NCBI RefSeq assembly: GCF_003018255.1
Contig: NZ_CP027440.1
Origin: Escherichia coli
GTDB taxonomy: Bacteria > Pseudomonadota > Gammaproteobacteria > Enterobacterales > Enterobacteriaceae
Reading direction: 5' to 3' (one strand)
DNA: 64,000 nt
Shown: piece after piece, positions 1 through 64,000 of the stretch
Layout of the letters: every line of letters starts with the position of its first letter
Position numbering within the stretch: the first letter of the stretch is position 1
Position numbers and translations under genes: made by a program
The notes under the pieces: generated by a model
Seen by the model: only the letters and a program-made list of their open reading frames with translations
What the model was told of the DNA's origin: nothing
Database searches by the model: none

Positions 1-581
1 CCAAGCGTCACAATGCCAATGGCAGCATCACCCACATTAATGGTCGGCAACGCCATAAATAATGCGCCGACTTTTTGTAGATAATGTTCAGGGACATGGG
101 CCATTTGCAGACCGAGAAAATCTTTAATCTGCATGGTACCGATGGTGATCCCGATACCGGAAGTAAAACCTAAGGTAACGGAAACCGGAATATATTCAAT
201 CAAGCGTCCAAAACGTGCCAGCCCCATCAGGATCAAAAAGACACCTGACATGAGTGTCGCGACCAGCAGTCCTGCCAGTCCAAACTGTTGCGAAACGGGA
301 TAGAGAATTACCACAAATGCCGCAGTCGGACCGGAAACGCTAAAGCGTGACCCACCCGTCAGAGCAATGACAATCCCCGCAACAGCTGCGGTATATAAAC
401 CGTACTGGGGTGCCACACCACTACCAATAGCCAACGCCATTGCCAGCGGGATAGCAATAATCCCGACGGTTATCCCGGCAATCAGGTCACGGGTAAACCG
501 TGCGGCAGTATATTTTTCTTTCCAGCAAGCGTCGATCAGAGCGCGGAAAGGCATCACATGTGAGGAAAATATTTTGTTCAC
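1..581 (-). CDS. dauA: SulP-family C4-dicarboxylate transporter DauA (YchM), N-terminal part; gene continues past window start
   Basis: Minus-strand frame from GTG at 579-581 reads [40 protein letters not shown]..., recognised as the DauA N-terminus; no stop before position 1. ORF-track + ORF 367-600 is its antisense. Confidence 0.8.
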
Positions 582-705
582 AATAATGTTTCATCCGTGA
601 GCGCATCATCTGTCAACTAAATGGCAGGTGAAGGAGGCATAGGTCATACAAATGGATATTACAGACAAAAAAACCCGCCGCAGCGGGTCTTTGAGCCGGG
701 TTCGA

Positions 706-1779
<1,074 letters not shown>

Positions 1780-1803
1780 TCACCGAAACTCAGCTTGCCC
1801 GGC

Positions 1804-2654
1804 TTAAAGCATGGCTCTGTGCAATGGGGAAAGATTAACGCCTTTCGCCACAAAGCCATTGAGCCATTCCGGGGCTTGCTCTAGCACCTGGCGGGCTTCA
1901 GACTCTGTATCAAATTCAGCAAAGACACAGGCCCCTGTCCCAGTCAGGCGCGACGGGGCGTATTCTAACAGCCAGGAAAGCACCGCATCAACCTCGCGAA
2001 AACGTTTTCTTGCGATAACCTCGCAATCATTGCTGAATTCACATTTTAGCAACGTTTCTATTGACCTTTTTGGCGTATTGCGCGGGAGTTCAGGATCTTT
2101 AAAAATCACCGGTGTCGGAATACTTACACCAGGGTGCGCCACCAAGTACCACTTCTCTGGCGGATCCACCGGCGTTAGTATTTCACCAACGCCTTCGGCA
2201 AACGCGGCATGCCCCCGAACAAAGACAGGAACATCTGCGCCCAGCGTCAGCCCCATTTCCGCCAGCTCATCCATGCTTAGCCCGCATTGCCAGAGATGGT
2301 TTAATGCCACCAGCACCGTCGCGGCATTGGATGAACCACCACCCAGACCGCCGCCCATCGGCAAACGCTTGTCAATACTGATTTCTGCACCGCTTCCCGT
2401 AGGAAGACGCCCGCTGTCTGCCGCTGTTTTCATCAGCAACCGTGCTGCGCGAACGATCAGGTTATCTTCATGTTCCACGCCTTCAACGGGTGTTAACAGA
2501 CGAATATCCCCATCGTCACGAAGCTCAATGCTGATGGTGTCGCCGTAATCCAGGAACTGAAACAGCGTTTGCAGCGTGTGGTAACCGTCCGCACGCTGAC
2601 CGGTAATGTATAAAAACAGATTAAGTTTTGCCGGAGAGGGCCACTGTGTCCGCA

Positions 2655-2655
<1 letters not shown>
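1804..2655 (-). CDS. ispE: 4-diphosphocytidyl-2-C-methyl-D-erythritol kinase
   Basis: ORF track 283 aa; GHMP-kinase glycine-rich motif [14 protein letters not shown] visible; position between lolB and prs as in K-12. Confidence 0.93.
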
Positions 2656-3347
<692 letters not shown>

Positions 3348-3491
3348 CTATGTTCAAGTTGTCTTAATTGCCAGAATCTAACGGCTTTCGGCAATTACTC
3401 CAAAAGGGGGCGCTCTCTTTTATTGATCTTACGCATCCTGTATGATGCAAGCAGACTAACCCTATCAACGTTGGTATTATTTCCCGCAGAC

Positions 3492-4748
3492 ATGACCCTT
3501 TTAGCACTCGGTATCAACCATAAAACGGCACCTGTATCGCTGCGAGAACGTGTATCGTTTTCGCCGGATAAGCTCGATCAGGCGCTTGACAGCCTGCTTG
3601 CGCAGCCGATGGTGCAGGGCGGCGTGGTGCTGTCGACGTGCAATCGCACGGAACTTTATCTTAGCGTTGAAGAGCAGGATAACCTGCAAGAGGCGTTAAT
3701 CCGCTGGCTTTGCGATTATCACAATCTTAATGAAGAAGACCTGCGTAAAAGCCTCTACTGGCATCAGGATAACGACGCGGTTAGCCATTTAATGCGTGTT
3801 GCCAGCGGCCTGGATTCACTGGTTTTGGGGGAGCCGCAGATCCTCGGTCAGGTTAAAAAAGCGTTTGCCGATTCGCAAAAAGGCCATATGAAGGCCAGCG
3901 AACTGGAACGCATGTTTCAGAAATCTTTCTCTGTAGCGAAACGTGTTCGCACTGAAACAGATATCGGTGCCAGCGCTGTTTCTGTCGCTTTTGCGGCTTG
4001 TACGCTGGCGCGGCAGATCTTTGAATCGCTCTCTACGGTGACGGTACTGCTGGTGGGTGCGGGCGAAACCATCGAGCTGGTGGCGCGTCATCTGCGCGAA
4101 CACAAAGTACAGAAGATGATTATCGCCAACCGCACTCGCGAACGTGCCCAAATTCTGGCAGATGAAGTCGGCGCGGAAGTTATTGCCCTGAGTGATATCG
4201 ACGAACGTCTGCGCGAAGCCGATATCATCATCAGTTCCACCGCCAGCCCGTTACCGATTATCGGGAAAGGCATGGTGGAGCGCGCATTAAAAAGCCGTCG
4301 CAACCAACCAATGCTGTTGGTGGATATTGCCGTTCCGCGCGATGTTGAGCCGGAAGTTGGCAAACTGGCGAATGCTTATCTTTATAGCGTGGACGATCTG
4401 CAAAGCATCATTTCGCACAACCTGGCGCAGCGTAAAGCCGCAGCGGTTGAGGCGGAAACTATTGTCGCTCAGGAAACCAGCGAATTTATGGCGTGGCTGC
4501 GTGCACAAAGCGCCAGCGAAACCATTCGCGAGTATCGCAGCCAGGCAGAGCACGTTCGCGATGAGTTAACTGCCAAAGCGTTAGCGGCCCTTGAGCAGGG
4601 CGGTGACGCTCAAGCCATTATGCAGGATCTGGCATGGAAACTGACTAACCGCCTGATCCATGCGCCAACGAAATCACTTCAACAGGCCGCCCGTGACGGG
4701 GATAACGAACGCCTGAATATTCTGCGCGACGGCCTCGGGCTGGAGTAG
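3492..4748 (+). CDS. hemA: Glutamyl-tRNA reductase
   Basis: ORF track 3294..4748; start moved to ATG 3492 ([15 protein letters not shown]..., 418 aa). Confidence 0.93.
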
Positions 4749-51074: not shown

Positions 51075-51430
51075 GCACTCTCCTTGAGTTTTATGCAGGT
51101 GTTAATTAGCGGGTAATTGTACCCTGGTTAAGCCTCGGGTGGCAGCATCAGGTCTTGTATGGAAAAGCATATCTTTGTAAAGCGGAGGTAATTGCTGGCC
51201 TTCAGACGTGGGCAAATCGCGGCAAGTGGCGATCGAGTTAATATTTGCGTAGCGAAAATATTTAAAAATTGATTTAAATCACATTAACCAGGATTCTCAA
51301 TGCAACTTCTAAATTAATCCAGATCAATAAATGGTGAATTATCATATGTAATGTGATCTATGTAGGATCATTTGTTACTCCAATGTAGGTATATTCGTCA
51401 CGTTTTTATAACCATAACGACGGAGCGGAT

Positions 51431-52069
51431 ATGAAAAAGTTAACAGTGGCGGCTTTGGCAGTAACAACTCTTCTCTCTGGCAGTGCCTTTGCGCATGAAG
51501 CAGGCGAATTTTTTATGCGTGCAGGTTCTGCAACCGTACGTCCAACAGAAGGTGCTGGTGGTACGTTAGGAAGTCTGGGTGGATTCAGCGTGACCAATAA
51601 TACGCAACTGGGCCTGACGTTTACTTATATGGCGACCGATAACATTGGTGTGGAATTGCTGGCAGCGACGCCGTTCCGCCATAAAATCGGCACCCGGGCG
51701 ACCGGCGATATTGCAACCGTTCATCATCTGCCGCCAACACTGATGGCGCAGTGGTATTTTGGTGATGCCAGCAGCAAATTCCGTCCTTACGTTGGGGCAG
51801 GTATTAACTACACCACCTTCTTTGATAATGGATTTAACGATCATGGCAAAGAGGCGGGGCTTTCCGATCTCAGTCTGAAAGATTCCTGGGGAGCTGCCGG
51901 GCAGGTGGGGGTTGATTATCTGATTAACCGTGACTGGTTGGTTAACATGTCAGTCTGGTACATGGATATCGATACAACGGCTAAGTATAAATCTGGTGTT
52001 ACTACCGTGAAAGACTCGGTACGACTGGATCCGTGGGTGTTTATGTTCTCTGCCGGATATCGCTTTTAA
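51431..52069 (+). CDS. ompW: Outer-membrane protein OmpW
   Basis: ORF track 212 aa with signal peptide (MKKLTVAALAVTTLLSGSAFA) and C-terminal aromatic residue. Confidence 0.95.
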   Translation: MKKLTVAALAVTTLLSGSAFAHEAGEFFMRAGSATVRPTEGAGGTLGSLGGFSVTNNTQLGLTFTYMATDNIGVELLAATPFRHKIGTRATGDIATVHHLPPTLMAQWYFGDASSKFRPYVGAGINYTTFFDNGFNDHGKEAGLSDLSLKDSWGAAGQVGVDYLINRDWLVNMSVWYMDIDTTAKYKSGVTTVKDSVRLDPWVFMFSAGYRF

Positions 52070-52072
52070 TTT

Positions 52073-52107
52073 TCTCTGCAAAATCTCTGCAAAACTCCTC
52101 TGCAAAA
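52073..52107 (+). repeat. Three tandem direct repeats (tctctgcaaaa x2, ctcctctgcaaaa) between ompW and the prophage integrase
   Basis: Read directly from sequence; located where integrase arm-type binding sites of an attL are expected. Confidence 0.5.
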
Positions 52108-52132
52108 CTGGTCATCAAATGACCAGTTTTTT
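52104..52132. terminator. Palindromic bidirectional terminator overlapping the integrase stop codon
   Basis: aaaa-ctggtcat-caa-atgaccag-tttttt; perfect 8-bp inverted repeat flanked by A-run and T-run. Confidence 0.65.
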
Positions 52133-53245
52133 CCACTCTTTACCGCGTACATCGTTGTAAATATCGGTCATTTTTTGATTCGAATGACCCAGCAAAATTT
52201 GGGTATCAATTCCCTGCTCCCTGAACAATCGCTCTGATAAAGATCTCTGCTCATGGAAAGAGGGTGGAGTGCCATTAGCGCGCCAGTTGTAATCCACAGA
52301 ATCCCGGGCTTTTTTAAATGCAACTGTCAACGTTGCTGGCTTAACCATCCCGCCGCGCTTAGCTGTCCCTTTAGCATGATGGTGGTGCAATAACCACGGA
52401 CTAAGAACGCAATCGCGACAGGATGACACTACATCATCCAGGGTGAGATTTAATTTATCGCAACGCAGAGCCAGAGGGATGGCAATCCGGGTTCCTGTTT
52501 TTTGCTGTTCGACATGAAGATAACCATCCCTGATATCCGAAAATTTCATTTTGCAAATATCTGAAAGGCGCTGGCCTGTCATCAGCGCCAGCAGCATACC
52601 ACGTTGTAAAAAGTAACCATCCTTTTCCGCTGCATTATAAATCATCATCCACTCATCAAAGGTCAGTCGTTGCCGTGATATCCGTACCTGTGGTTTTTTT
52701 GCCGATTCTGCAGGGTTAAAGCCTGGCGAGACATCGCCCGTTTGCTGGGCCTCCCGGAAAACATCAATCAGTACTTTCCTGAAAATTTGTCCCATTCTGT
52801 TATGTCCTTTTGCCTTGTAATCTTCCAGCACCGATACCACATCTTTTACGGTTATGGCATCTAATGGTCTGGTACCAAAACGTTCATCAAATACCCTGAG
52901 AGGGGATGCTTTCTGTTTCAGTGTGTTGAGTTTGATCTCTCCGTTTTCATATCTTTCCTGTTGAATTTTTCGGTAACTATTCAGAAAAACAGAAACGGTT
53001 GATGAACCACCGGTATCACGAATAATTTTCTCCTGCAGAGTGAGCATTTGTTCCATTTGTTGCCTGGCAAGACGGCTGTTCGCTTCTGCTGCAATAGCTT
53101 CTGCCTGTTTCTGGTCAATACTGCCGAGCCCGTGATTTTTTCCTGTTATGGGATGCCTGTAACGCCAGTAAACTTTGTTATTTCTTTTGTCAAAATACGG
53201 AGATAATCCCGGAACTTCAGTTTTATATTTTCGTGGGCGCGCCAT
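52115..53245 (-). CDS. int: Phage integrase (tyrosine recombinase, lambda Int family)
   Basis: ORF track 376 aa; C-terminal LLGHSNQKMTDIYNDVRGKEW resembles the lambda Int active-site region (H, R, catalytic Y). Confidence 0.9.
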   Translation of the reverse strand: MARPRKYKTEVPGLSPYFDKRNNKVYWRYRHPITGKNHGLGSIDQKQAEAIAAEANSRLARQQMEQMLTLQEKIIRDTGGSSTVSVFLNSYRKIQQERYENGEIKLNTLKQKASPLRVFDERFGTRPLDAITVKDVVSVLEDYKAKGHNRMGQIFRKVLIDVFREAQQTGDVSPGFNPAESAKKPQVRISRQRLTFDEWMMIYNAAEKDGYFLQRGMLLALMTGQRLSDICKMKFSDIRDGYLHVEQQKTGTRIAIPLALRCDKLNLTLDDVVSSCRDCVLSPWLLHHHHAKGTAKRGGMVKPATLTVAFKKARDSVDYNWRANGTPPSFHEQRSLSERLFREQGIDTQILLGHSNQKMTDIYNDVRGKEWKKLVI

Positions 53246-53471
53246 CTTCCAGTATCCTCTTCAAAGCAGGGTGATCTGTGGCGATCACTTCCGGCTTGTT
53301 TACCATTCCGACAAAGCGAGCTCGAGGATCCACTCGCCAGTGTCTTCCAACTTTTTTGGGGAGAGGAAATATCATTCCGGCTTTAGCGTATTTACTTAAC
53401 GTGCCCGGAGTAGGGACCGGTTCACTGAATTCCTCTTTTGCCCACTCAGTGAGCAGAATAAGTCTTGCCAT
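53223..53471 (-). CDS. xis: Excisionase (lambda Xis-like)
   Basis: ORF track 82 aa; LILLTEW...GMIFPLPKKVGRHWRV resembles lambda Xis; overlaps int start by 23 nt. Confidence 0.7.
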   Translation of the reverse strand: MARLILLTEWAKEEFSEPVPTPGTLSKYAKAGMIFPLPKKVGRHWRVDPRARFVGMVNKPEVIATDHPALKRILEDGAPTKI

Positions 53472-53535
53472 GAACGTTGTTCGCTAATCATGGTCGCCGC
53501 CACTATAGCTTGCGGGCGACGACCGGGGTTGAACA

Positions 53536-56007
53536 TTAAAAATCAGCCTGACTCGGGATCAGTTTTTGCCAGATGGCTGAAACGTATTTTGCCTGGTAAC
53601 GCGCATCGTGCAGCGCGTTATGGCGTTCACCTTCGAATGGAATAGTCGTTCTTGCGTCGAAATCCATCACCAGTCCCAGAGCAACCATCGTTCTTACATC
53701 GCGATCATTGGTGTAACGCCACGGGCAGGGGATCCCCTGCCGTTCATATGAACGGCGTAAAATCACGTTGTCGAAAGTTGCACCGTTACCCCAGACCTGA
53801 ACAAAAAATTCACCGGAGTTTTCGTCGATAAATTCCCGGAATTGCAGCAGTGCATCATCCAACGGGATTTCATCGGTCAGAATGGCGGATTGTGCTTCGC
53901 GTGACTGTTTCAGCCACCACTTAATGGTGCCCCGATCGATGACCCCGCCTGCGGTTTCCAGATCGATAGTTTTGCTGAATTCTGGCCCCATCTCTCCGGT
54001 TGCCGGATCAAAAAACTTACCGGCTATAGAGTTTATTGGCGCATCAGGATTTTTTCCCATTGTTTCAAGGTCAATCATCAGATGGTGCCACAACCTGCTG
54101 GTGGATGTGATTTCATGATGACCGTTCACTTTAATTAAGGGATTTGCTGTCTCGCCAGTTTTATTATCGCTGGCGTGATACTGATCGCTGACAGTGTTCT
54201 CCTTGTGCAGATGTTCAGTGCCTTCCATTTCCTCCGGATCATTTTCCTGAGCTTCAGCCTGATTCTCTTCATCGAATGTTTCCTGGTTGGTTGCGTTCCC
54301 CATCACCGCACCACAGTCAGGACAGTTGCCGCCACCGGTCTGACCGCATGCGGTGCAAACTTTTTCCGGTTCTTGTTGCACTTCTGGTTCAGGCAGTTTC
54401 GTTTCTGGCTCGTTTTGTAACGCATTTGGACTGTTTTGTTCCGCTTTCTGGTCGTTTTGTTCCGATTCGGGCTGGTTCTGGTTCACAGAATCGCGGGTTT
54501 CAATCCCCTTAACCCATTTCGGATCATTCGGGTCGCTAATCCCTTCAACAAATTCACCACGTGATGCAGCAAGCAATTTATCGGTGTCAGGCTGGCTGAT
54601 ATTGGCTGCCTGCATAATTTTGTTTACTTCGTCAGCGGTAACTTTTACCGGCTCTGGTTGTTCTGAATCTTCTGCGGTATCTGTATTTTGCTGTAAGCCC
54701 GTATATGTGCCATTTTTTCGGGCAAAATATTCTTCTTTTGAGATTTCGGTACCACCGGCAGCCAGCGCCTTGTCCAGGCCAGAAAGTTTGTTTGCCCTGC
54801 CGTATTTTTCCCCGTCCTTATCGGTAAAGACGAAATAAAACGGTCCTTCACGCTCTACAGATGGTTCAGCTTCCACCAGGATTTCATTTTTTTGAGAATT
54901 GGATTCCGCCGTCTCCACTGGATCAGTTTGTGCTGCTGACGACAGGATAGCATCAGCAGAGCTCTGGTCTGTTTCTTCATGTTCAAACACGCCCTTTGTC
55001 GTCAGGTATTCGCTGATGTATTTGTTCAGTGCAACGGGATCTTTGTGAATGTCGATCGGGCGCTCACGAACAAGGCCAAAAATAGTCTGACGGTCATAGC
55101 GAAGCGCATCAGGCTGTTTGCGCATTGATGCAGAGATACGCTTCCAGTCTTCGCGATCCTTGTCGATAACCTCATTTTTAGCCCAGCGATGGATGGTACC
55201 GTCAATGTTTCCGGCATCAATATCACCAGGCCAGAGAGCGTAAGCCAGCTCTTCATCCAGGGTTTTCCATGTCTGCTTGTATTCGCGACGAATGGCAGTA
55301 GTGACAGGGTTGATTTTTGCTGCTGAGTTTTCAGTGTGCTGTTGGTTGACTCTGGCGCGGGCCAGCTCAACAACAGAAGTATGTTTCCCGGTTTCTTTTC
55401 GTTCTGCTTCGCGACGTTTTTTCCAGGTGCGCATCTCTGCCTGAATTTCTGGCCATTTGGCACCAGGCTTACATTTATGCTTAACCCACCCGATGGCATG
55501 CAGTTTAATCTCCGGATACATGGCGTTAACTTCTGGCATTTTCATCAACGCTTCAACGATATGTCCGTCGAAGGTTGCCATGTCTTCCTGCAACAATTCC
55601 TGTGCGCTAATCACCATATCAACGGTGATGTTTTCACATGTGTCGAACTTAACCATGACAGCGTTCTGTACTTCAGGGGACAGCTTGTCAAAAGTGACGT
55701 TCATCGGATCTGATTCAGTCTCAACCGGGACAAAGGAAGCAGACGCCTCATCCCAGCGGTTTTCCAGCATATATTCAGCATCCCAGGAGTCGAGGGCTGG
55801 GCGGGGTGTACCGGGTTTATCCTCACAGACAAGAAATTTATAAGCGCAGTCCTGAGCAGCCGGATAATGTTCAAGGAATTGCCAGTGAAATTTTGCGCGG
55901 GCGCGACGTTCATCACCGGCTTCAATGGCTGTGGCCACAGCAACAGCGCCCTCGTTTTTTATTGCCTGTTCGTCAGGAATGGCGGCGCAAATAAATATTT
56001 TACTCAT
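53536..56007 (-). CDS. Large prophage exonuclease-like protein with C-terminal DnaQ-like (DEDDh) 3'-5' exonuclease domain
   Basis: ORF track 823 aa; C-terminus has motifs in order DLETMG, FDNVIL, HNALHDARY; CxxC...CxxC (CTACGQTGGGNCPDCG) mid-protein; acidic Q/E/N/P-rich linker. Sits in the exo/recE position after xis. Confidence 0.75.
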   Translation of the reverse strand: MSKIFICAAIPDEQAIKNEGAVAVATAIEAGDERRARAKFHWQFLEHYPAAQDCAYKFLVCEDKPGTPRPALDSWDAEYMLENRWDEASASFVPVETESDPMNVTFDKLSPEVQNAVMVKFDTCENITVDMVISAQELLQEDMATFDGHIVEALMKMPEVNAMYPEIKLHAIGWVKHKCKPGAKWPEIQAEMRTWKKRREAERKETGKHTSVVELARARVNQQHTENSAAKINPVTTAIRREYKQTWKTLDEELAYALWPGDIDAGNIDGTIHRWAKNEVIDKDREDWKRISASMRKQPDALRYDRQTIFGLVRERPIDIHKDPVALNKYISEYLTTKGVFEHEETDQSSADAILSSAAQTDPVETAESNSQKNEILVEAEPSVEREGPFYFVFTDKDGEKYGRANKLSGLDKALAAGGTEISKEEYFARKNGTYTGLQQNTDTAEDSEQPEPVKVTADEVNKIMQAANISQPDTDKLLAASRGEFVEGISDPNDPKWVKGIETRDSVNQNQPESEQNDQKAEQNSPNALQNEPETKLPEPEVQQEPEKVCTACGQTGGGNCPDCGAVMGNATNQETFDEENQAEAQENDPEEMEGTEHLHKENTVSDQYHASDNKTGETANPLIKVNGHHEITSTSRLWHHLMIDLETMGKNPDAPINSIAGKFFDPATGEMGPEFSKTIDLETAGGVIDRGTIKWWLKQSREAQSAILTDEIPLDDALLQFREFIDENSGEFFVQVWGNGATFDNVILRRSYERQGIPCPWRYTNDRDVRTMVALGLVMDFDARTTIPFEGERHNALHDARYQAKYVSAIWQKLIPSQADF

Positions 56008-56102
56008 TGTGTTTAAACCTCATTACAGATTTCAGGGTGAACGAATCCCTGCCATTGCTGGCATTTTTAATCCGTTGGTATGGCGTTAATATGGCTGGCG
56101 GG

Positions 56103-56291
56103 TTATCCAGCCGGTGTTTCGTTATTCAGGTACAGCGATACTTTGTTTAACGGGAGACATTCACCGGAAATTTTTTGCTCGTCTCTTGCCTGATGGCAGG
56201 ATTCTTTACTGGCATAAATTCCGGTAATCACATTCTGTGGCTCACCCGTTATAAGAAAAACCGTCATTACCAGTGCAAATGCAGAAGTCAC
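56103..56291 (-). CDS. Small prophage early protein with N-terminal hydrophobic segment (62 aa), function unknown
   Basis: ORF track; GTG start preceded by SD ggaggg; start overlaps the upstream gene stop as GTGA; N-terminus MTSAFALVMTVFLITG. Confidence 0.55.
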   Translation of the reverse strand: MTSAFALVMTVFLITGEPQNVITGIYASKESCHQARDEQKISGECLPLNKVSLYLNNETPAG

Positions 56292-56476
56292 TGCTGCCCT
56301 CCGAAAATGCCAAGTTTAAGAAGGGCAATTCTGGAGAGTATGGAATTATCATTGAGAAGATAAGGCTCATATTTTCTCATCCTGATGGCGTCCTCAGTAA
56401 ACTCCCGGTTACTGAGCAGAATACCAATATTAAAACACCCTTCAGACGTATTAACGTTTGGTAGTGACGTTTCCAT
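56288..56476 (-). CDS. Small prophage early protein (62 aa), function unknown
   Basis: ORF track; ATG preceded by SD gagga at 7-nt spacing; coupled to the downstream gene. Confidence 0.55.
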   Translation of the reverse strand: METSLPNVNTSEGCFNIGILLSNREFTEDAIRMRKYEPYLLNDNSILSRIALLKLGIFGGQQ

Positions 56477-56650
56477 TATCGCGTCCTCAACAATGAATTT
56501 TGTGATGTGGTGCCTGGTGCCTCCAGGTGACGTTAACCAGTTAACAATTAACGCCGGATTGTTAGTTGATGTCTGTTACGCCAGTAAAAGACCGCTTGTT
56601 TTAACTGTTCCGCGTGCGCTTAGCCGCATTCACCGCATCACAAAATACAC

Positions 56651-56680
56651 TTTAAAAATGGCGGATATCCATTTCCGCCG
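56651..56680 (-). terminator. Putative rho-independent terminator (minus strand)
   Basis: Stem ggcgga/tccgcc with 8-nt loop, followed on the minus strand by ATTTTTAAA. Confidence 0.45.
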
Positions 56681-57004
56681 AATCACCAGAAAAGTGATAA
56701 CAGAGGTTGTTGTGGCGGTGTTGTCACTCAGGCGTATGGTCAACCTGACAACCCGGTGCATTTTCTGGAGCAATGGAGGAAGCCCCAGCCATACTTACCG
56801 CCGCGCCATTTCGCGGATTGCCACAACCGGAAGCGCACGATCGAATTACATTTAACGACGACATATACAGAGAGACTAACTTCGCCGAGCGCTTTCGTGT
56901 TGTGTGCCTGCTTTTAACCACGTCAGGCGAGGTGGACCTGTTATTCCCCAACAACAAGGAGCTTGTTAATCTGGATATCCCCAACAACAATAAGAGTATT
57001 GAAT

Positions 57005-57448
57005 GTGATCGCTGAATTAACGGCAGCAATGACGGCTATTCGTGAAACCGCTCAGATTACAAAACTAATGAACGAGGCAAAAACTCAAGCTGAAGTAAAT
57101 GCGGCTATTGGTGAACTGAACTCAAAGCTTGCATCTATTCAGCACGAATGCGTGTCTCTCGTTGAGCTGGTGAGCACTTATCAAGAAATAAATGCTTCTC
57201 TCAAAGCTAAAATTGCAGAATTTGAAAACTTTGAGGCTCAGACGGAAGGTTATATCCTTAACCAACTTGAGTCGGGAACTTTTGTGTACTCGAAGGAGGT
57301 AACCGTGAACGGCGGCAGCATAATCATGCATCTTTGTCCAAAATGTTTTGGACAAAAGATAGTATCGATACTTCAACCATTCCCGGTTAGAGAACATGAG
57401 TTTTTCATAAAAGCAGGTGCCTCTACTGTGAAAATCAGTTTCTTATGA
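57005..57448 (+). CDS. Hypothetical prophage protein on the opposite strand to flanking early genes; predicted coiled-coil N-terminal half, Cys-containing C-terminal region
   Basis: ORF track 56963..57448; protein-like composition while overlapping minus ORFs look antisense-like (L/S/R/F-rich). Start uncertain (GTG 57005 with weak SD aagag; alternatives TTG 56963, ATG 57029). Confidence 0.5.
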   Translation: MIAELTAAMTAIRETAQITKLMNEAKTQAEVNAAIGELNSKLASIQHECVSLVELVSTYQEINASLKAKIAEFENFEAQTEGYILNQLESGTFVYSKEVTVNGGSIIMHLCPKCFGQKIVSILQPFPVREHEFFIKAGASTVKISFL

Positions 57449-57632
57449 ATAAAAATCCGGATTATGTATCGCCTCCATCTATTGAGGAGTTGGCCAGAAA
57501 ACTGAACGGCAATCTGTAGATTGTTACTGTTATGGATATCCAGATTGTTAAAGAGCATGCCGGATGCTTGCTTGTGTCCGGCGCGTGTGCACCAGTTCTC
57601 CCCGTGGAGGATTCCTTAACTACCAGACTTCA

Positions 57633-57785
57633 TTAGTCAGAGTTTCTTGCTAACCAGCGACGCGCGCCAGCTTCAGTTTTAAACGTTTTGCTTCTGGTAT
57701 ACGTCATCGCGGTAAACGTGCCGTCCTGGTTGGGGAATACTCCGCATACCAGAGATTCGTTGTTGCCAAGATTGAGCGTATCCAT
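57633..57785 (-). CDS. Small prophage protein (50 aa), function unknown
   Basis: Not in ORF track (<60 aa). Minus ORF MDTLNLGNNESLVCGVFPNQDGTFTAMTYTRSKTFKTEAGARRWLARNSD with SD tgaggt 4 nt upstream of ATG. Confidence 0.5.
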   Translation of the reverse strand: MDTLNLGNNESLVCGVFPNQDGTFTAMTYTRSKTFKTEAGARRWLARNSD

Positions 57786-58080
57786 GTTGACCTCATTTGC
57801 CCTTAACGCCGGGTCGCGGAACTAAAAACCTGCTGCGCTGTTATACAAAGTGTTCCCGCCGTCATGTTCATACGCCTCGGGCTGGCTACTTAACCCCTGA
57901 CCACTGCCTGGTAACTCGAAGTATTGCCTGGCGTTCTGTGGGGCGGGGTGGGTTGGTGATATAATGTACCTGCTGTTCATTAATGTAAAGTACTTTTAGT
58001 ACATTTTTGTGAGAGGTAAAATATCAGGAGGGGATGAGAGGAGCATAAACCCGGAGGGAAGCTACCGGATTTATGCAGAT

Positions 58081-58500
58081 TCAGGAGGCTTTTTGTTTTT
58101 TCTTTCGCGCTAATTCTTCATAAATTGCGTTGTACTTCTGTTTTTTCTCCTCAAGAGTTTTTAAAAGTTCATCAGTTTCACTGTCAGGGAGTTCATCAAG
58201 AAGTTCAATGATGATTTTTTGCTTCGGACTTAACTCCTGATAGAAACGCAGGCTTCCGCTTTCTTCAGTGTCCTCCCCCAGAAGGTAAGTTGGTGTTGTT
58301 CCGATAAGTGCTGCCAATTCTTTCAGTTTCTCTCGACGGGGAATTGCCTCTCCATTAAACCATTTACTAACCGCTTTGGGTGTTAGCTTCATTCGACGGG
58401 CAATTTCTGCCTGCCTTCCGTGTTGTTCAAAGCCAGCATTTTCACAGGCTAGCGCAAGCCTGCTGGCGAACTCTTTACGCGCTTCATCTTCATGAACCAT
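58081..58500 (-). CDS. Prophage repressor (CI functional analogue, XRE-type HTH, no S24 peptidase domain)
   Basis: ORF track 139 aa; HTH region RRMKLTPKAVSKWFNGEAIPRREKLKELAALIG; divergent from a cro-like gene; acidic C-terminal half. Confidence 0.75.
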   Translation of the reverse strand: MVHEDEARKEFASRLALACENAGFEQHGRQAEIARRMKLTPKAVSKWFNGEAIPRREKLKELAALIGTTPTYLLGEDTEESGSLRFYQELSPKQKIIIELLDELPDSETDELLKTLEEKKQKYNAIYEELARKKKQKAS

Positions 58501-58579
58501 AAGTTCAATGATATTTGCTATTGAATGTACTGTCAGTTCTGTTATATTGTGTACTCAAAGTTCACATTGTGAGGGTGAT
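58501..58579. promoter_or_regulatory. Divergent promoter/operator region of the immunity module (pRM-like and pR-like)
   Basis: Palindrome TTCAAT-N10-ATTGAA at 58504-58525; + strand -35 ttgaat (58521-26) and -10 tatatt (58543-48); minus strand -35 ctgaca and -10 tatcat placing the start within a few nt of the repressor ATG (leaderless). Confidence 0.55.
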
Positions 58580-58846
58580 ATGAGCCATACAACACTTGCA
58601 GATGTAATCAAAGCAGTTCGCGTTTCTGTTGTAGCCGATGTTTGCGGTGTCAGCCAAAGAGCAATCTACAAATGGATGAATAATGGAAAATTACCGCGCA
58701 CAGAATATACAGGCGAAACAAATTACGCTGAAAAAATTGCTCTGGCATCAAACGGATTATTTTCTGCTGATGCGGTTTTGACTATTGGCAGGATTAAGCC
58801 TACAGCGAATGAATCACTGGCGGTGAACAATGAAAATCACCCCTGA
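58580..58846 (+). CDS. Cro-like HTH regulator (YdaS-like)
   Basis: Internal ATG of ORF 58508..58846 with SD gagggtg; HTH ADVCGVSQRAIYKWMNNGKLP; divergent from the repressor. Confidence 0.7.
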   Translation: MSHTTLADVIKAVRVSVVADVCGVSQRAIYKWMNNGKLPRTEYTGETNYAEKIALASNGLFSADAVLTIGRIKPTANESLAVNNENHP

Positions 58847-59381
58847 ACAGGTTTGTGAGGCTCTGGATGCCTGGGTATGCCGACCAGGAATGACACAGGA
58901 GCAGGCGACGATATTAATCACGGAAGCATTCTGGGCTCTGAAAGAACGCCCGAACATCGATGTTCAACGCGTCACGTTTAATGATGGCGAGGTTGATCAA
59001 CGGGCGCTGGGCGTTAATCGAGTGAAGATATTCGAACGCTGGAAGGCTATCGACACCAGGGATAAGCGTGAAAAATTCACGGCGCTGATTCCGGCAATTA
59101 TGGAGGCTATCCGGGTAAGTGATTTCAGGTTGTATTGTGAAATTACTGACGGAAAAAGCATTACGTACATGATCGCCGGGTTAAACAAAGAGTATGGCGA
59201 TGTGGTGGAGTCCGGGCTGCTTTTTGCGGATCCAGTTGTTGTGGAACGTGAGACTGATGAGCTTATAGAAAAAGCCATTGCTTTCAAGCGTGCGTATCGT
59301 CAGCAATACCAACATTACTTTGCAGATAAACAAATATCTGTCTGGGGTTCGTATGAGTATCGATGCACTACGATGGGCTAA
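58830..59381 (+). CDS. Hypothetical protein in the CII position of the early-right operon
   Basis: ORF track 183 aa; overlaps the cro-like gene end by 17 nt; family not recognised. Confidence 0.6.
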   Translation: MKITPEQVCEALDAWVCRPGMTQEQATILITEAFWALKERPNIDVQRVTFNDGEVDQRALGVNRVKIFERWKAIDTRDKREKFTALIPAIMEAIRVSDFRLYCEITDGKSITYMIAGLNKEYGDVVESGLLFADPVVVERETDELIEKAIAFKRAYRQQYQHYFADKQISVWGSYEYRCTTMG

Positions 59382-60390
59382 AAAGGTGAAAACCGGCAGT
59401 TCATCCAGTAAGTCAGTATTGACCTGGCTTGCTGATATGTGCGGTGCCGATTTGTGCGCATACCCGTCTATATCTGCACTGGCAGAAGTAACGGAACTGA
59501 ACAAAAAGACTGTGCAGGACAGTTTACGACACCTGATGGAGATTGGGTTAATTGTTGATACTGGTGAGAGAAAAGGCAGAACAAAGCAAATTGTGGTGTA
59601 CCGACTTATCGGTGTAGAAGAAAGTGTTGCCGAGCCTGAATACACCCAAAAACGGGAGTCTTTAAAGGTGGGTAAAATTGGTACTGTTAATAAAAATAGT
59701 ACCGAAAATGGTTATGTTTCAGCACAAAACAGACCCAAAAACGGAACTCTTAGCTGCATGGAAAATAACCAAAGACACCCAAATTTTCCATCAAAGACAC
59801 CCAAAAACGGATCACGGAACCCAAAGGAACCCAAAGATCTAAACCCCACACATAACGCACGCGAGAGTGCTCCGACCAGTGAGCAGGAAGTTTTGTCGTT
59901 ACAGGCAGCGCCCCCTGTATTCTTGGATGGCCTGAGCGAACCCATCGGGAAATTTTCGATGACTACTGTCTGGCAGCCGTCGCTGGATTTTCGACAACGG
60001 GCAGTAGTGTGGGGTATGGCTCTGCCTGAGCCGGAATTTACACCTGCTGAGCTTGCCGCATTCCGGGATTACTGGATGGCGGAGGGGAAGGTTTTCACGC
60101 AGGTTCAGTGGGAGCAGAAATTTGCCCGTCACGTGCAGCACGTCAGGGCACAGGTAAAACCAGTCAGCAAGGGGGTAAGCCATGCAGCATCAGGTGGCAC
60201 GGCATCACGGGCAGTTCAGGAAATCCGGGCAGCACGCGAACAGTGGGAACGTGAAAACGGATTTATCAGCAACGGAAACGGCCTGGAAGCTGTGGGAGCT
60301 TATGGGGGAGGTGTATTCGAACCGCTGGACTCAGAAGAATGGGGCCGCACCTTCGAAGCTCTGGATTGCCCAGATTGGTGCGATGACTGA
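59353..60390 (+). CDS. Phage replication initiation protein (lambda O functional position; HTH N-terminus)
   Basis: Internal ATG 59353 of ORF 59278..60390 with SD gggg; N-terminus MSIDALRWAKKVKTG... typical of phage replication-initiator HTH domains. Confidence 0.65.
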   Translation: MSIDALRWAKKVKTGSSSSKSVLTWLADMCGADLCAYPSISALAEVTELNKKTVQDSLRHLMEIGLIVDTGERKGRTKQIVVYRLIGVEESVAEPEYTQKRESLKVGKIGTVNKNSTENGYVSAQNRPKNGTLSCMENNQRHPNFPSKTPKNGSRNPKEPKDLNPTHNARESAPTSEQEVLSLQAAPPVFLDGLSEPIGKFSMTTVWQPSLDFRQRAVVWGMALPEPEFTPAELAAFRDYWMAEGKVFTQVQWEQKFARHVQHVRAQVKPVSKGVSHAASGGTASRAVQEIRAAREQWERENGFISNGNGLEAVGAYGGGVFEPLDSEEWGRTFEALDCPDWCDD

Positions 60391-60844
60391 ACAGCAAATC
60401 CGTCTGGTCTGCCGTCAGTGCATGGACCGCTGCCGGGCGGGTGAAACGTGGCCCCCGGACCTGGCTGAGTTTGTTGCGCTGATTTCGGAGAGTGGGGCAA
60501 ATCCATTTGGTCTTACGGTGGATGCCGTGATGGAAGAGTACCGGCGCTGGCGCAATGAATCCTGGCGATACGACGGGAGTGATAAATACCCGTGGCCACA
60601 GCCTGTGCTGTACCACATCTGCCTCGAAATGCGTACCAGAGGGATTGAGCGCCAGATGACGCAGGGTGAGTTAAAACGACTTGCGGAACGGCAACTGACG
60701 AAATGGGCAAAGCATGTTGGTAACGGGATGAGTGTTCCGCCAGTGCGACGACAACTGGAAGGGGCGAAACACCCGAAAGGGCCAACGCCAATTGAACGGC
60801 TGAAACAGGAATACGAACGCCGGAAGGCTGCTGGTTTTGTTTGA
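60182..60844 (+). CDS. Lambda P-like replication protein (helicase loader)
   Basis: ORF track 220 aa; segments WIAQIGAMTEQQIRLVCRQ, PDLAEFVALI, YPWPQPVLYHI, MTQGELKRLAERQL parallel my memory of lambda P; ATG 60182 has SD aagggggt. Alternative starts 60302 or 60383. Confidence 0.6.
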   Translation: MQHQVARHHGQFRKSGQHANSGNVKTDLSATETAWKLWELMGEVYSNRWTQKNGAAPSKLWIAQIGAMTEQQIRLVCRQCMDRCRAGETWPPDLAEFVALISESGANPFGLTVDAVMEEYRRWRNESWRYDGSDKYPWPQPVLYHICLEMRTRGIERQMTQGELKRLAERQLTKWAKHVGNGMSVPPVRRQLEGAKHPKGPTPIERLKQEYERRKAAGFV

Positions 60845-60877
60845 ATCTGGGAAACGATTTTGTCGGAGGAAATTTTA

Positions 60878-61594
60878 ATGGAAACCGTATTTGACGCACT
60901 GAAAGCACTGAAAAGAGCCTCTTCACAGGTAGTGGCGGCCCGCCTTGGAATCAGCCGTGAAGATGCGGTCAACGAACTGTGGAAACTGAAGCGCCGTGGT
61001 GAAGCGGATAACAAGGGGTCGATGTGGTGGCTGACTCAGGCAGGTGAAAGTGAACCAGTGTCACCGGTACCGAAAGTGACAGCGCAAATGCTGACTGAGG
61101 CGATTGAACAACATGGCCCACAAACGGCGGATGAGCTGGCACTTATGTTCGGGATTACCTCCCGCCGGGCGAATTCATCGCTGGCCATGGCAATCAGCAA
61201 AGGGCGTCTGATTCGCGTAAATCAGGGCGGTAAATTTCGTTACTGCATACCGGGCGCTGATTTACCGGCAGAGCCGGAAGCTGCATCCGTAGCGGAAACC
61301 GATGGTAAAGCCTTTCCTCAGCCAGCAGGTGTTGCGTTACCAGTCCAGGAAACGACGACACAGGAAGAAATGAAAACAGAAATCGTGGAAGACATTGTGA
61401 AGTTACAGCCATCGGTCACCGAAACGAAAGCAGATGACCTGATTCTACCATCGCTGCATGTGGCTAACCGCGAGCTGCGCCGGGCAAAAGGTCAGGTTCA
61501 GAAGTGGGAGCGAGTCTGCGCCGCGCTGCGGGAGCTGAACAAGTGCCGGGATATTCTCCGGGATATTACCGCCACCAGAGAACAGCAGCGGTGA
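60878..61594 (+). CDS. Hypothetical prophage protein with two winged-helix-like segments
   Basis: ORF track 60860..61594; ATG 60878 preceded by SD ggagga at 7-nt spacing. Confidence 0.6.
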
Positions 61595-61908
61595 GTGGGT
61601 GGAAGACGTGGTGCCGGGCTGAAATTCTGATACTCCGGCAGTGCGCGGGAACAATGAAGGTAAAAAGCATTGGCGCACTTATCGGACGAACTGAAGCGGC
61701 AGTGAGAACGAAGGCACGGGAGTTGGGCATCAGCATGATGTTACGTGGTGATTTTCACCCGTCGGCAAAATATTCTCAGCGTGATATTGAGCTGGCGCGG
61801 CAACTGCATCAGAGAGGCATGCAAAGAAGGGAAATTGCCAGAAAATTAGGCATGCCGCTGCGCATAGTGAATAACTACGTTTATTTCGACAGGAGGGTTC
61901 AGGCGTGA
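61591..61908 (+). CDS. Hypothetical HTH DNA-binding protein
   Basis: ORF track 61504..61908; GTG 61591 overlaps the upstream stop (GTGA); HTH-like segments [20 protein letters not shown] and [15 protein letters not shown]; start uncertain. Confidence 0.5.
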
Positions 61909-62210
61909 GGGTGAGCATTTATATCGCCGGTCCAATGACGGGATATGAAAATTTCAACCGCGAGGCGTTTCACAGGGCGGAAGAAGCACTGAAACGGGAA
62001 GGGCATACCGTTTTAAACCCGGCAGTACTTCCGGACGGGCTGACTCAGCCGCAGTACATGGATATTTGCATGGCAATGATTCGTTGTGTGGATGCGGTTT
62101 ATATGCTGAAAGGCTGGCAGCGATCGGCAGGCGCTAAGGCAGAACTGGCACTGGCGGAGAAACTGGGACATGCGGTTATTTTCCAGGAGGCAACCAGTGA
62201 GCGAAATTAA
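61905..62210 (+). CDS. Nucleoside 2-deoxyribosyltransferase-like protein (DUF4406-type)
   Basis: ORF track 101 aa; N-terminus [13 protein letters not shown]...NPA fits the Rossmann-like IYxAGP signature of that superfamily; GTG start with SD aggaggg, GTGA-coupled to the upstream gene. Confidence 0.5.
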   Translation: MRVSIYIAGPMTGYENFNREAFHRAEEALKREGHTVLNPAVLPDGLTQPQYMDICMAMIRCVDAVYMLKGWQRSAGAKAELALAEKLGHAVIFQEATSERN

Positions 62211-62359
62211 TTACCAGGAGCTACGGCAGGTGAAAGAGAAAGCATAATCCAGATCTGAATAATTAAAATCAGCACTGTAAATAAAATTTAATCCTTAACC
62301 GGAGGGATTTCTGCACCCTCAGAACATCAGGAGACCGCCAGAAAGGGCGGTAATGAAAA

Positions 62360-62728
62360 ATGACTGAATTAACAAAAGAGCAATTAATCAAAGAAGCCAA
62401 ATTAAAAATAGCGGTTGCGAAATGTTACCCTAATTCAGAGATGGCCAGGGTAGAGGGAGAGCTATTCAAAATTGCACTGGCATCGCTGGAGGCGGTTCCG
62501 GTGGCATGGCTGCATTCAGACAATGGCCTGGGTATTCCAGCAATAACCAGGAGTAAAAACGTTGCTGATAGTTGGTTATCAAAGGGCTGGTATGTTCAGC
62601 CGTTATATGTAGCCCAACCTGTACCGGTGGTGCCGGATGCTCGTCCATCTTTAAATAATGGCATTGTCGGATTTGATGAAGGCTGGAATGCCTGCCGGGA
62701 TGCCATGCTTAATGGAGATAAATCATGA
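62360..62728 (+). CDS. Hypothetical protein (122 aa), first gene of a coupled three-gene cassette
   Basis: ORF track; no recognisable motif; stop overlaps the next start (ATGA at 62725-62728). Confidence 0.6.
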   Translation: MTELTKEQLIKEAKLKIAVAKCYPNSEMARVEGELFKIALASLEAVPVAWLHSDNGLGIPAITRSKNVADSWLSKGWYVQPLYVAQPVPVVPDARPSLNNGIVGFDEGWNACRDAMLNGDKS

Positions 62729-63426
62729 TTAATCGTATCAAACTGGAGCACATCCTCGAATATGCCGGGCAGCAGAGGCATATTGGTCAGCATTGTAAAA
62801 TTCCACCAGGAGATATGGTTGAAATCATGGAGATTGCCATGCGCAAGGCTGGCAACCCTCCGGTAACTCCGGGGCGTTTGCCTGGCGGTTTCACCATTGA
62901 GGAGGCGAAGGAGTTACATGAAGACCTGGTGCGCAGCCACATAAGCAAGGCTTTAAGTGGCGAAAAGATGAAGAAGAAGGATCTCGATGCTGATTTGCGC
63001 TGGATCCATGGGGTTATAGTCCAGGCCGCTTGGTTTGTAAAAGCATCACTGGAGCAGAATGTGCTAACGGGTAACTCTCAGGTAATCCCTGATGACGGTC
63101 GCGAACAGTTTGAAACACTTATCAGGTTCCATGCAGATGATAAAAACCATGAAACATTATTGCTTCGTGCTAACGAAGGGATGAATTACCGGGATCCAAA
63201 TGTGGATTTGGCATGGATATTCTGGAAATCCAGTCGAGAGCACATATTGCCTGGAAAAAGCGACAATAATCCAGCATCAGGCGATCAGGTAAGTGAATTA
63301 ACAATGTGGGTGAAGCGGTTATCTCATTCCTTAAAAAGCGTTAATAAATCAAGCAAACTACCGGATAAAGCGATGGACTACCTGAAGCGAAACGGACTGA
63401 TAAACGAGGAGAATATTTTACGATGA
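62725..63426 (+). CDS. Hypothetical protein (233 aa), second gene of the cassette
   Basis: ORF track; SD ggaga 6 nt upstream; no recognisable motif; stop overlaps the next start (ATGA at 63423-63426). Confidence 0.65.
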   Translation: MINRIKLEHILEYAGQQRHIGQHCKIPPGDMVEIMEIAMRKAGNPPVTPGRLPGGFTIEEAKELHEDLVRSHISKALSGEKMKKKDLDADLRWIHGVIVQAAWFVKASLEQNVLTGNSQVIPDDGREQFETLIRFHADDKNHETLLLRANEGMNYRDPNVDLAWIFWKSSREHILPGKSDNNPASGDQVSELTMWVKRLSHSLKSVNKSSKLPDKAMDYLKRNGLINEENILR

Positions 63427-63506
63427 CCTGGCCTGAAGCGTTCATAACGGTAGGAATTGCAATGGCGGTGGCGCTGGTGGTGTATTCGATTTGCCGCTGG
63501 GGATAA
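63423..63506 (+). CDS. Small hydrophobic peptide (27 aa), third gene of the cassette
   Basis: Not in ORF track (<60 aa): MTWPEAFITVGIAMAVALVVYSICRWG; SD gaggag upstream; single predicted transmembrane helix. Confidence 0.4.
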   Translation: MTWPEAFITVGIAMAVALVVYSICRWG

Positions 63507-63659
63507 AAACGGTTTGCGGGGAAAGAAGAGTTAAGTAGAATTGCTGCGGGTGCTTGAGGCTGTCTGCCTCGGGCATGCCGCCGTAAGGCAGACAGAGAAA
63601 AGCCCCAGTTAACATTACGCGTCTTGCAGGACGCTTAACATTAATCTGAGGCCCAATCT

Positions 63660-63872
63660 ATGCTTCACAAACGTAGGTTAGCCTCTTACGTGCCGAAAGG
63701 CAAGGAGAAGCAGGCTATGAAGCAGCAAAAGGCGATGTTAATCGCCCTGATCGTCATCTGTATTACCGTTGTTGTGACGGCACTGGTAACGAGGAAAGAC
63801 CTCTGCGAGGTACGAATCCGAACCGGCCAGACGGAGGTCGCTGTCTTCGTAGACTACGAATCTGAGAAGTAA
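63660..63872 (+). CDS. mok: Mok-like reading frame (N-terminally extended frame required for hok translation)
   Basis: ORF track 70 aa MLHKRRLASYVPKGKEKQAMKQQKAM..., parallel to recalled K-12 MokC; same frame as hok. Confidence 0.5.
   Translation: MLHKRRLASYVPKGKEKQAMKQQKAMLIALIVICITVVVTALVTRKDLCEVRIRTGQTEVAVFVDYESEK
63717..63872 (+). CDS. hok: Hok/Gef-family type I toxin (HokD/RelF-like, 51 aa)
   Basis: MKQQKAMLIALIVICITVVVTALVTRKDLCEVRIRTGQTEVAVFVDYESEK is near-identical to recalled HokD/HokC; SD aaggagaag upstream of ATG 63717. Confidence 0.85.
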   Translation: MKQQKAMLIALIVICITVVVTALVTRKDLCEVRIRTGQTEVAVFVDYESEK

Positions 63873-64000
63873 GAGTGACCAAGCGAGGGAGAAATCCCTC
63901 GCCACCTCTGATGTGTCAGGCATCCTCAACGCACCCGCACTTACCCCGTTCGGCAGACTTTGTTTTTTCCTGGCATTCTGGTTTACAATTCGCACGTCAG

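Follow-up and report, generated by a model that had tools for sequence, protein, structure and literature searches.

A candidate distal P' arm of attL, with putative arm-type integrase sites and a putative hairpin terminator, in a lambda-like prophage integrated in ompW of Escherichia coli

Background

Bacteriophage lambda carries three tandem direct arm sites, spaced by ~10–13 bp, that lie right before the int stop codon or overlap it. One copy in the same orientation is found ~130–140 bp away across the core and is followed by an IHF site; the lambda integrase (Int) has an arm-binding domain, and the xis gene is located upstream of int. The lambda sites P'1–P'3 are as defined by Ross and Landy and by Landy (1989). 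Phage 21, like e14, integrates within a gene (icd) and carries a substitute 3' end for it. In the annotation of phage 21, the icd 3' pseudogene is followed by a terminator, by "3 subsites P1P2P3, consensus YYTTCCCCAAAA" and then by the int stop codon; the P arm of this phage contains a single dodecamer (−131) together with a perfect match to the IHF consensus (~−99). The long attP of phage 21 has reportedly been delimited and is said to be bounded by the outermost dodecamers, its length being reportedly linked to preservation of the icd transcript.

Prophages in the ompW gene are known as well. The PPompW prophages of Shiga-toxin-producing E. coli (STEC) O145:H28 and O157:H7 have been described, with a 121-bp attL/attR duplication in ompW and with attP detected by PCR (Nakamura et al. 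2021, PMC8112680). PPompW relatives carry the type III effector genes espO, nleG and espM and contain internal attB sites where Stx2a phages integrate (L005, PMC8112680). That study treats the whole 121-bp imperfect duplication as att and nowhere mentions the term "arm-type". A literature search combining ompW with arm-type found no papers.

Here we analyze an attachment site of this kind in a stretch of 64,000 nucleotides from E. coli (contig NZ_CP027440.1), hereafter the window. The segment 52073–52132 is likely to be the distal portion of the attL P' arm in a lambda-like prophage integrated inside ompW, comprising putative arm sites and a putative hairpin terminator, as judged from comparisons of attachment sites and related phages. 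The design is already known from the lambda and phage 21 paradigm, and ompW prophages are already described; the ompW phage shares with lambda the three tandem sites at the int stop, the distant copy in the same orientation with an IHF-like site behind it, the arm-binding domain of Int and the position of xis, and with phage 21 the substitute gene end and the single distant copy.

Repeat cluster and integrase gene downstream of ompW

The ompW stop codon (52067–52069) is located just 5' of two units tctctgcaaaa (52073–52083 and 52084–52094) and a third unit, ctcctctgcaaaa (52095–52107). Within both strands of the 64-kb window, CTCTGCAAAA is present in three tandem exact copies, starting at 52074, 52085 and 52098, and a fourth exact copy is absent. 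With one mismatch allowed, five matches were found versus 6.3 expected, and there is no enrichment elsewhere in the window. A chance origin of the three-repeat cluster is excluded.

The repeats are followed by a perfect inverted repeat with arms at 52104–52115 and 52119–52130 (12 + 12 nt, 100% complementary) and a T run that extends to 52132. The stop codon of int, tca on the plus strand (52115–52117), straddles the border between the left arm, which contributes its final base, and the hairpin loop, which contributes its first two. An earlier note on this DNA, made from the sequence alone, had reported three tandem direct repeats beside int and a perfect palindrome overlapping the int stop, and both descriptions agree with the counts and coordinates given here. 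Its layout of the hairpin is also accurate, except that the opening "aaaa", which it listed as separate bases, forms the tail of the third repeat.

We designate three putative arm-type Int sites on the plus strand, with the consensus YYYCTGCAAAAY. The candidate site P'1, TCTCTGCAAAAT (52073–52084), contains CTGCAAAA, which is invariant in 13 haplotypes. The candidate P'2, TCTCTGCAAAAC (52084–52095), is defined by its sequence, the motif count and the haplotype comparison. The same evidence, together with the inverted repeat, defines the candidate P'3, CCTCTGCAAAAC (52097–52108), whose A run is the base of the hairpin.

The int gene (52115–53245, minus strand) encodes a lambda-family tyrosine integrase of 376 aa. 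It contains an N-terminal arm-binding domain (Pfam PF09003, Arm-DNA-bind_1, residues 2–71, E = 7.1e-22) and a PF00589 domain, and keeps the residues that align with lambda R212, K235, H308, R311, H333 and Y342. The protein is 51% identical to the Int of phage 21 and 37% identical to that of lambda. The start of int is overlapped by xis (53223–53471, minus strand), which matches PF07825 (Exc, E = 3.6e-7) and corresponds to a gene annotated as excisionase in RefSeq lysogens. The likeness to the lambda P' arm-type sites that the earlier note had seen in the repeats is supported at the sequence level by their position at the int stop, the arm-binding domain, the copy of the motif in the P arm, and the layout in phage 21 and other Int relatives. 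Int is a two-handed recombinase; it would grip the arm sites with the N-terminal domain, and the C-terminal domains would cut and rejoin DNA at the core ~120 bp away. After integration, host ompW is resealed with a phage-borne 3' end.

Core and probable strand exchange inside ompW

The ompW coding sequence of the window (51431–52069, plus strand) is intact (212 aa) and chimeric, with a host part up to the core and a phage 3' end beyond it. The Pfam OmpW match is full-length (model positions 1–195 of 195, E = 1.6e-80). The alignment with E. coli K-12 shows near-identity to ~51975, a diverged ompW end from 51976 to the stop codon, and nothing alike after the stop. In prophage-free complete E. 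coli genomes, similarity to the window stops at 52071. The earlier note had proposed an alignment with the empty ompW-yciE site as a check, and its result identifies the repeats and the hairpin as phage DNA, since both are absent from prophage-free strains.

The attR site of this prophage lies beyond the end of the window, and attR was therefore taken from JNE120442, a strain with 99.8% identity to a 2-kb ompW–int query (window 51300–53300), and from other lysogens. The JNE120442 sequence is identical to the window over 51855–52734, so the attL region is identical. The other end of the JNE120442 prophage, 54 kb away, consists of a phage arm and a 126-nt ompW 3' remnant, followed by yciE.

The sequence CAGTNTGGTACATGGATATNGATAC (window 51951–51975) is the sole block common to attL, attR of JNE120442, K-12 attB and free attP. 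It is the common core of 25 bp, of which CAGTCTGGTACATGGATATCGATAC is the attL copy. The core boundary is sharp on the left; on the right, the flanking sequences are merely similar, the phage having its own version of the ompW end. Since the shared block is limited to 51951–51975, integration takes place within ompW, and the gene is completed again by the phage copy of the last 31 codons, stop included (51976–52069, plus strand). These codons form part of the P' arm, as indicated by their divergence from K-12 and by the contiguity of attP: in free attP the substitute ompW end adjoins the P arm via the core, and the original 3' end is the 126-nt remnant at attR. Their phage origin was overlooked in the earlier note, which had placed the attL junction itself at 52073–52132; the core is located 98–122 bp upstream of the first repeat.

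The same comparisons bear on the suggestion that the 8-bp palindrome next to int is the recombination core or the crossover site. A perfect dyad beside int would fit such a role, and this reading nevertheless has next to no probability. The hairpin is found only in attL and attP, at ~150 bp from the core in free attP; a core would also have to be present in attR and attB, and both lack the hairpin. It is likewise missing from the P arm, and the only block in common remains 51951–51975. The palindrome was rejected as the core on these attL, attR, attB and attP comparisons. At the other prophage end, where the earlier note had proposed to look for the core, one copy of the repeat motif is present in the P arm and the palindrome is missing from attR.

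Allele differences at the edges of the core suggest where the strands are exchanged. The attL site has C at 51955 and C at 51970, JNE120442 attR has G and T, and G and C are present in every typical free attP. The attB predicted from these alleles (C and T; the left part from the window and the right part from JNE120442) is found with 100% identity over 243 nt, in an intact ompW, in three genomes. The simplest reading is that strand exchange would take place within TGGTACATGGATAT (51956–51969).

Two variations of the junction were observed. The P arms of L049 and L093 have ATGTCGGTC to the left of the core, as in the variant ompW allele of the lysogen L089; with these P arms the identity between attP and attB is lengthened to ~30 bp. 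In place of ompW, the locus IMGVR_UViG_643886067_000001 has the same P' arm and int adjoining, at GGTCTGGTACATGG, the N-terminal portion of an open reading frame that, judging from its translation, looks like a fimbrial usher. This junction is a secondary insertion site or a rearrangement.

Organization and conservation of intact attP

A contiguous attP was found in phage 204576 (CP025907.1) and in the IMG/VR loci L043, L063, L064, L065, L068, L073 and L049. The IMG/VR search for Int relatives yielded 80 loci, most of which are prophage predictions trimmed at the int stop; ten of them are informative. The elements of attP are arranged in the order P1, IHF-like site, 25-bp core, phage ompW end, P'1–P'3 (YYYCTGCAAAAY), hairpin and int stop. 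Counted from the core start, P1 (YYYCTGCAAAAC) is at −131, P'1 at +122, P'2 at +133 and P'3 at +146. P1 is the single copy of the YYYCTGCAAAAY motif in the P arm and has the same orientation as the P' repeats. Both attP arms thus carry a motif distinct from the core, which does not contain CTGCAAAA.

The IHF-like sequence AATCA[AG]NCAGTTA is located in the P arm at −101, directly after P1, in the form AATCAGGCAGTTA or, in other variants, as the perfect AATCAATCAGTTA. No match to the H'-like IHF consensus with up to one mismatch is present in the P' arm. All sequence-level features of the arm-site class that were tested are found at this locus, with this P'-arm IHF site as the exception. A search of attP for an inverted arm site resembling P2 found none; a weak match in direct orientation, TCTCAATAAAAT at −110, was left out of the count, as it overlaps the IHF-like site. 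Because neither element was found, the lambda intasome is not simply transferable to the ompW phage.

Besides these two elements, the ompW phage differs from lambda in its arm motif (C/AAGTCACTAT in lambda versus YYYCTGCAAAAY here), in the Int sequence, and in the target, which is intergenic in lambda and inside a gene for the ompW phage. The lambda P' sites begin at ~+60, in contrast to +122 here, because the corresponding arm of the ompW phage carries 94 bp of ompW coding sequence.

Both arms were compared between phages. Eleven P-arm haplotypes fall into four unrelated classes of left flank, and the similarity between them begins exactly at the motif. The longest invariant run in the P arm is the 9-nt CTGCAAAAC, in a region where 64 of 132 columns vary (48%). 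On the P' side, 13 haplotypes have no variable position among the 24 positions of CTGCAAAA, versus three among the 15 other intergenic positions, all three changes being pyrimidine-to-pyrimidine (Fisher p = 0.05, a weak test on related sequences). The neighboring substitute ompW end varies in 35 of 94 columns.

The number of repeats is itself variable. It equals two, five, five and six in E. coli 20AR0300, 2013C-3342, O157:H7 E32511 and ERL03-1416 (L087, L219, L220 and L221, respectively), compared to three in the window, and all four strains have the Int protein WP_000113674.1. Three repeats nevertheless appear to be the common state, since 1367 of 1729 records that match a two-copy query fall in the identity band expected for a single 11-nt gap.

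Related integrases at other target genes

To extend the comparison beyond ompW, IMG/VR was scanned with the pattern CTGCAAAA-N(1-6)-CTGCAAAA, which gave at least 120 stretches. Among the matches listed, an Int-linked triple repeat occurs only in IMGVR_UViG_3300031418_000728 (L187) and IMGVR_UViG_3300035562_000124 (L189), and the others look like chance or coding repeats. The Int of L187 is 54% identical to that of the window and is located at the 3' end of a gene that we read as ushA-like from its C-terminal translation. L189 is at icd, and its Int is 49% identical to that of the window. Both loci have the order target-gene 3' end, terminator hairpin, three tandem YYCTGCAAAAY, and int stop codon.

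Phage 21, with icd as its target and the dodecamer YYTTCCCCAAAA, differs from the ompW phage in the placement of the terminator: its terminator precedes the repeats, whereas the hairpin of the ompW phage follows the repeats and spans the int stop. L187 and L189 use the CTGCAAAAC arm motif like the ompW phage, and phage 21 at icd uses TTCCCCAAAAC. As one motif is shared across different targets and two motifs are found at icd, arm specificity and target specificity seem to be shuffled independently. Some residues of the N-terminal domain are common to the three Int proteins with the CTGCAAAAC motif and different in phage 21 Int, which is suggestive only.

An alternative explanation is that the repeats are a functionless tandem array of 11- and 13-bp units that arose by replication slippage in a spacer, with their nearness to int being incidental. 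The strictly tandem arrangement and the range of two to six copies among lysogens with one Int accession are in line with slippage. We nevertheless regard this origin as improbable. Every P-arm lineage has a solitary copy of the motif 131 bp beyond the core, precisely where the similarity of attP begins; Int relatives at 49–54% identity, integrated in other target genes, retain three copies of the motif at the int stop; the layout recurs in phage 21 with another dodecamer; and three copies are apparently the common state, as judged from the identity band. That the motif is conserved on both sides of the core and that the design recurs in relatives favors the reading of the repeats as arm-type sites that Int would bind.

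Hairpin at the end of int

The hairpin AAAACTGGTCAT-caa-ATGACCAGTTTT with its T run (52104–52132) is a putative two-way intrinsic terminator, recognized by the inverted repeat and by folding. In an 81-nt context it folds at −17 kcal/mol (z = −5.2), and none of 200 shuffled sequences is as stable; the 8-bp stem alone has −9.4 kcal/mol and the 12-bp stem −13.8 kcal/mol. The 8-bp stem lies 40 nt past the ompW stop codon and is followed by U6 in the ompW direction and by U4 in the int direction. The hairpin is invariant across haplotypes except for a C-to-T change in the loop, by which the int stop TGA becomes TAA. The stem includes only four G-C pairs and has no variation on which covariation could be assessed. 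A terminator and promoter scan of the region did not call the hairpin, whose stem reaches into the T run, the probable reason for the miss, and detected no promoter of note. The region matched no Rfam family.

In phage 21, L187 and L189 the terminator is located between the target-gene end and the repeats. Here, the sole hairpin follows the repeats, so it is likely to be the ompW terminator. We consider it fairly likely that the phage provides the rebuilt ompW with its terminator in this form; the arm sites would then fall within the ompW 3' UTR. The hairpin with its U run would end the ompW transcript and, in the opposite direction, possibly also that of int.

The hairpin could instead serve mainly as a protein-binding palindrome, or as an RNA processing site that controls int in the manner of lambda sib. 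The stem is modest (−9.4 kcal/mol, four G-C pairs), the scan made no terminator call, and the overlap with the int stop could affect the stability of int mRNA. Such a role is unlikely given a textbook stem followed by U6 straight after the rebuilt gene, and given that phage 21, L187 and L189 each supply a clear terminator at this place, for which this is the only available hairpin here; no Rfam family was matched.

The native 3' UTR of ompW is entirely replaced. With the hairpin as terminator, transcription of ompW would run through the three A-rich repeats, and they would form the new 3' UTR. The repeats might then also act at the RNA level, by binding Hfq or small RNAs or by influencing transcript stability, and so change the regulation of ompW. 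We give this proposal very little weight: no Rfam family was matched, and in the relatives the terminator comes before the repeats, which leaves them outside the transcript of the target gene.

Variation of the phage-borne ompW end

The phage versions of the ompW end differ mainly in 51976–52030, as seen in the comparison of L073, L075 and L088; these are the codons just before the final conserved segment. The encoded variants are TTAKYKSGVTTVKDS in the window, TTASYKFNGTPVKDA, TKASYKLNGAPVKDS and TTAKYKSDGRKLAKGSYSDN, the last being five residues longer; the K-12 counterpart is TTANYKLGGAQQHDS. The C-terminal segment VRLDPWVFMFSAGYRF of OmpW is conserved, with DNA changes in the last codons at every third base. 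In the last 20 nt of the substitute end, this pattern is the one expected of sequence kept coding.

We take the variable codons to encode the last surface loop of OmpW. As these codons are phage-borne, lysogeny swaps a part of OmpW that is likely to be surface-exposed. One could speculate that lysogeny in this way re-tailors ompW, exchanging the presumed last-loop codons (at least four protein variants) and replacing the 3' UTR and the terminator; we hold this to be doubtful. If it were true, sensitivity to OmpW-dependent phages or colicins, or the regulation of ompW, could change, and lysogenic conversion would be built into the attachment site itself.

Distribution and significance

The int gene adjoins ompW in 1706 of 5426 complete E. 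coli genomes (1706–1740 by two counts; ~32%). The hallmarks of an ompW lysogen are present: int and xis stand beside the resealed ompW, and an ompW 3' remnant precedes yciE (JNE120442; PPompW_132418 annotation). The prophage of the window shares with PPompW_132418 (L005) the integrase family, the integration site, the repeats and the hairpin. It is a mosaic relative of the PPompW prophages, 93% identical to their records across the 330 nt that span the core through the 3' end of int, and different elsewhere. Mosaicism is also seen relative to JNE120442, to which the window prophage is near-identical up to ~55.5 kb and from which it diverges from ~56.1 kb. The best match over window 51400–64000 is strain 05-3629 (98.8%).

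The att map leaves the understanding of site-specific recombination unchanged. It provides a base-level description (core, probable crossover interval, arm consensus and attP limits) for a very common E. coli prophage family, among whose members are prophages that bring effector genes into Shiga-toxin-producing strains. The map may be used for precise delimitation of prophages and for engineering of site-specific integration at ompW, and, since the copy number of the arm sites varies from two to six, it helps to predict which prophages are still excisable. It also shows a design that recurs in this Int subfamily, in which the substitute gene end is combined with a terminator, a set of three arm sites and the int stop codon.
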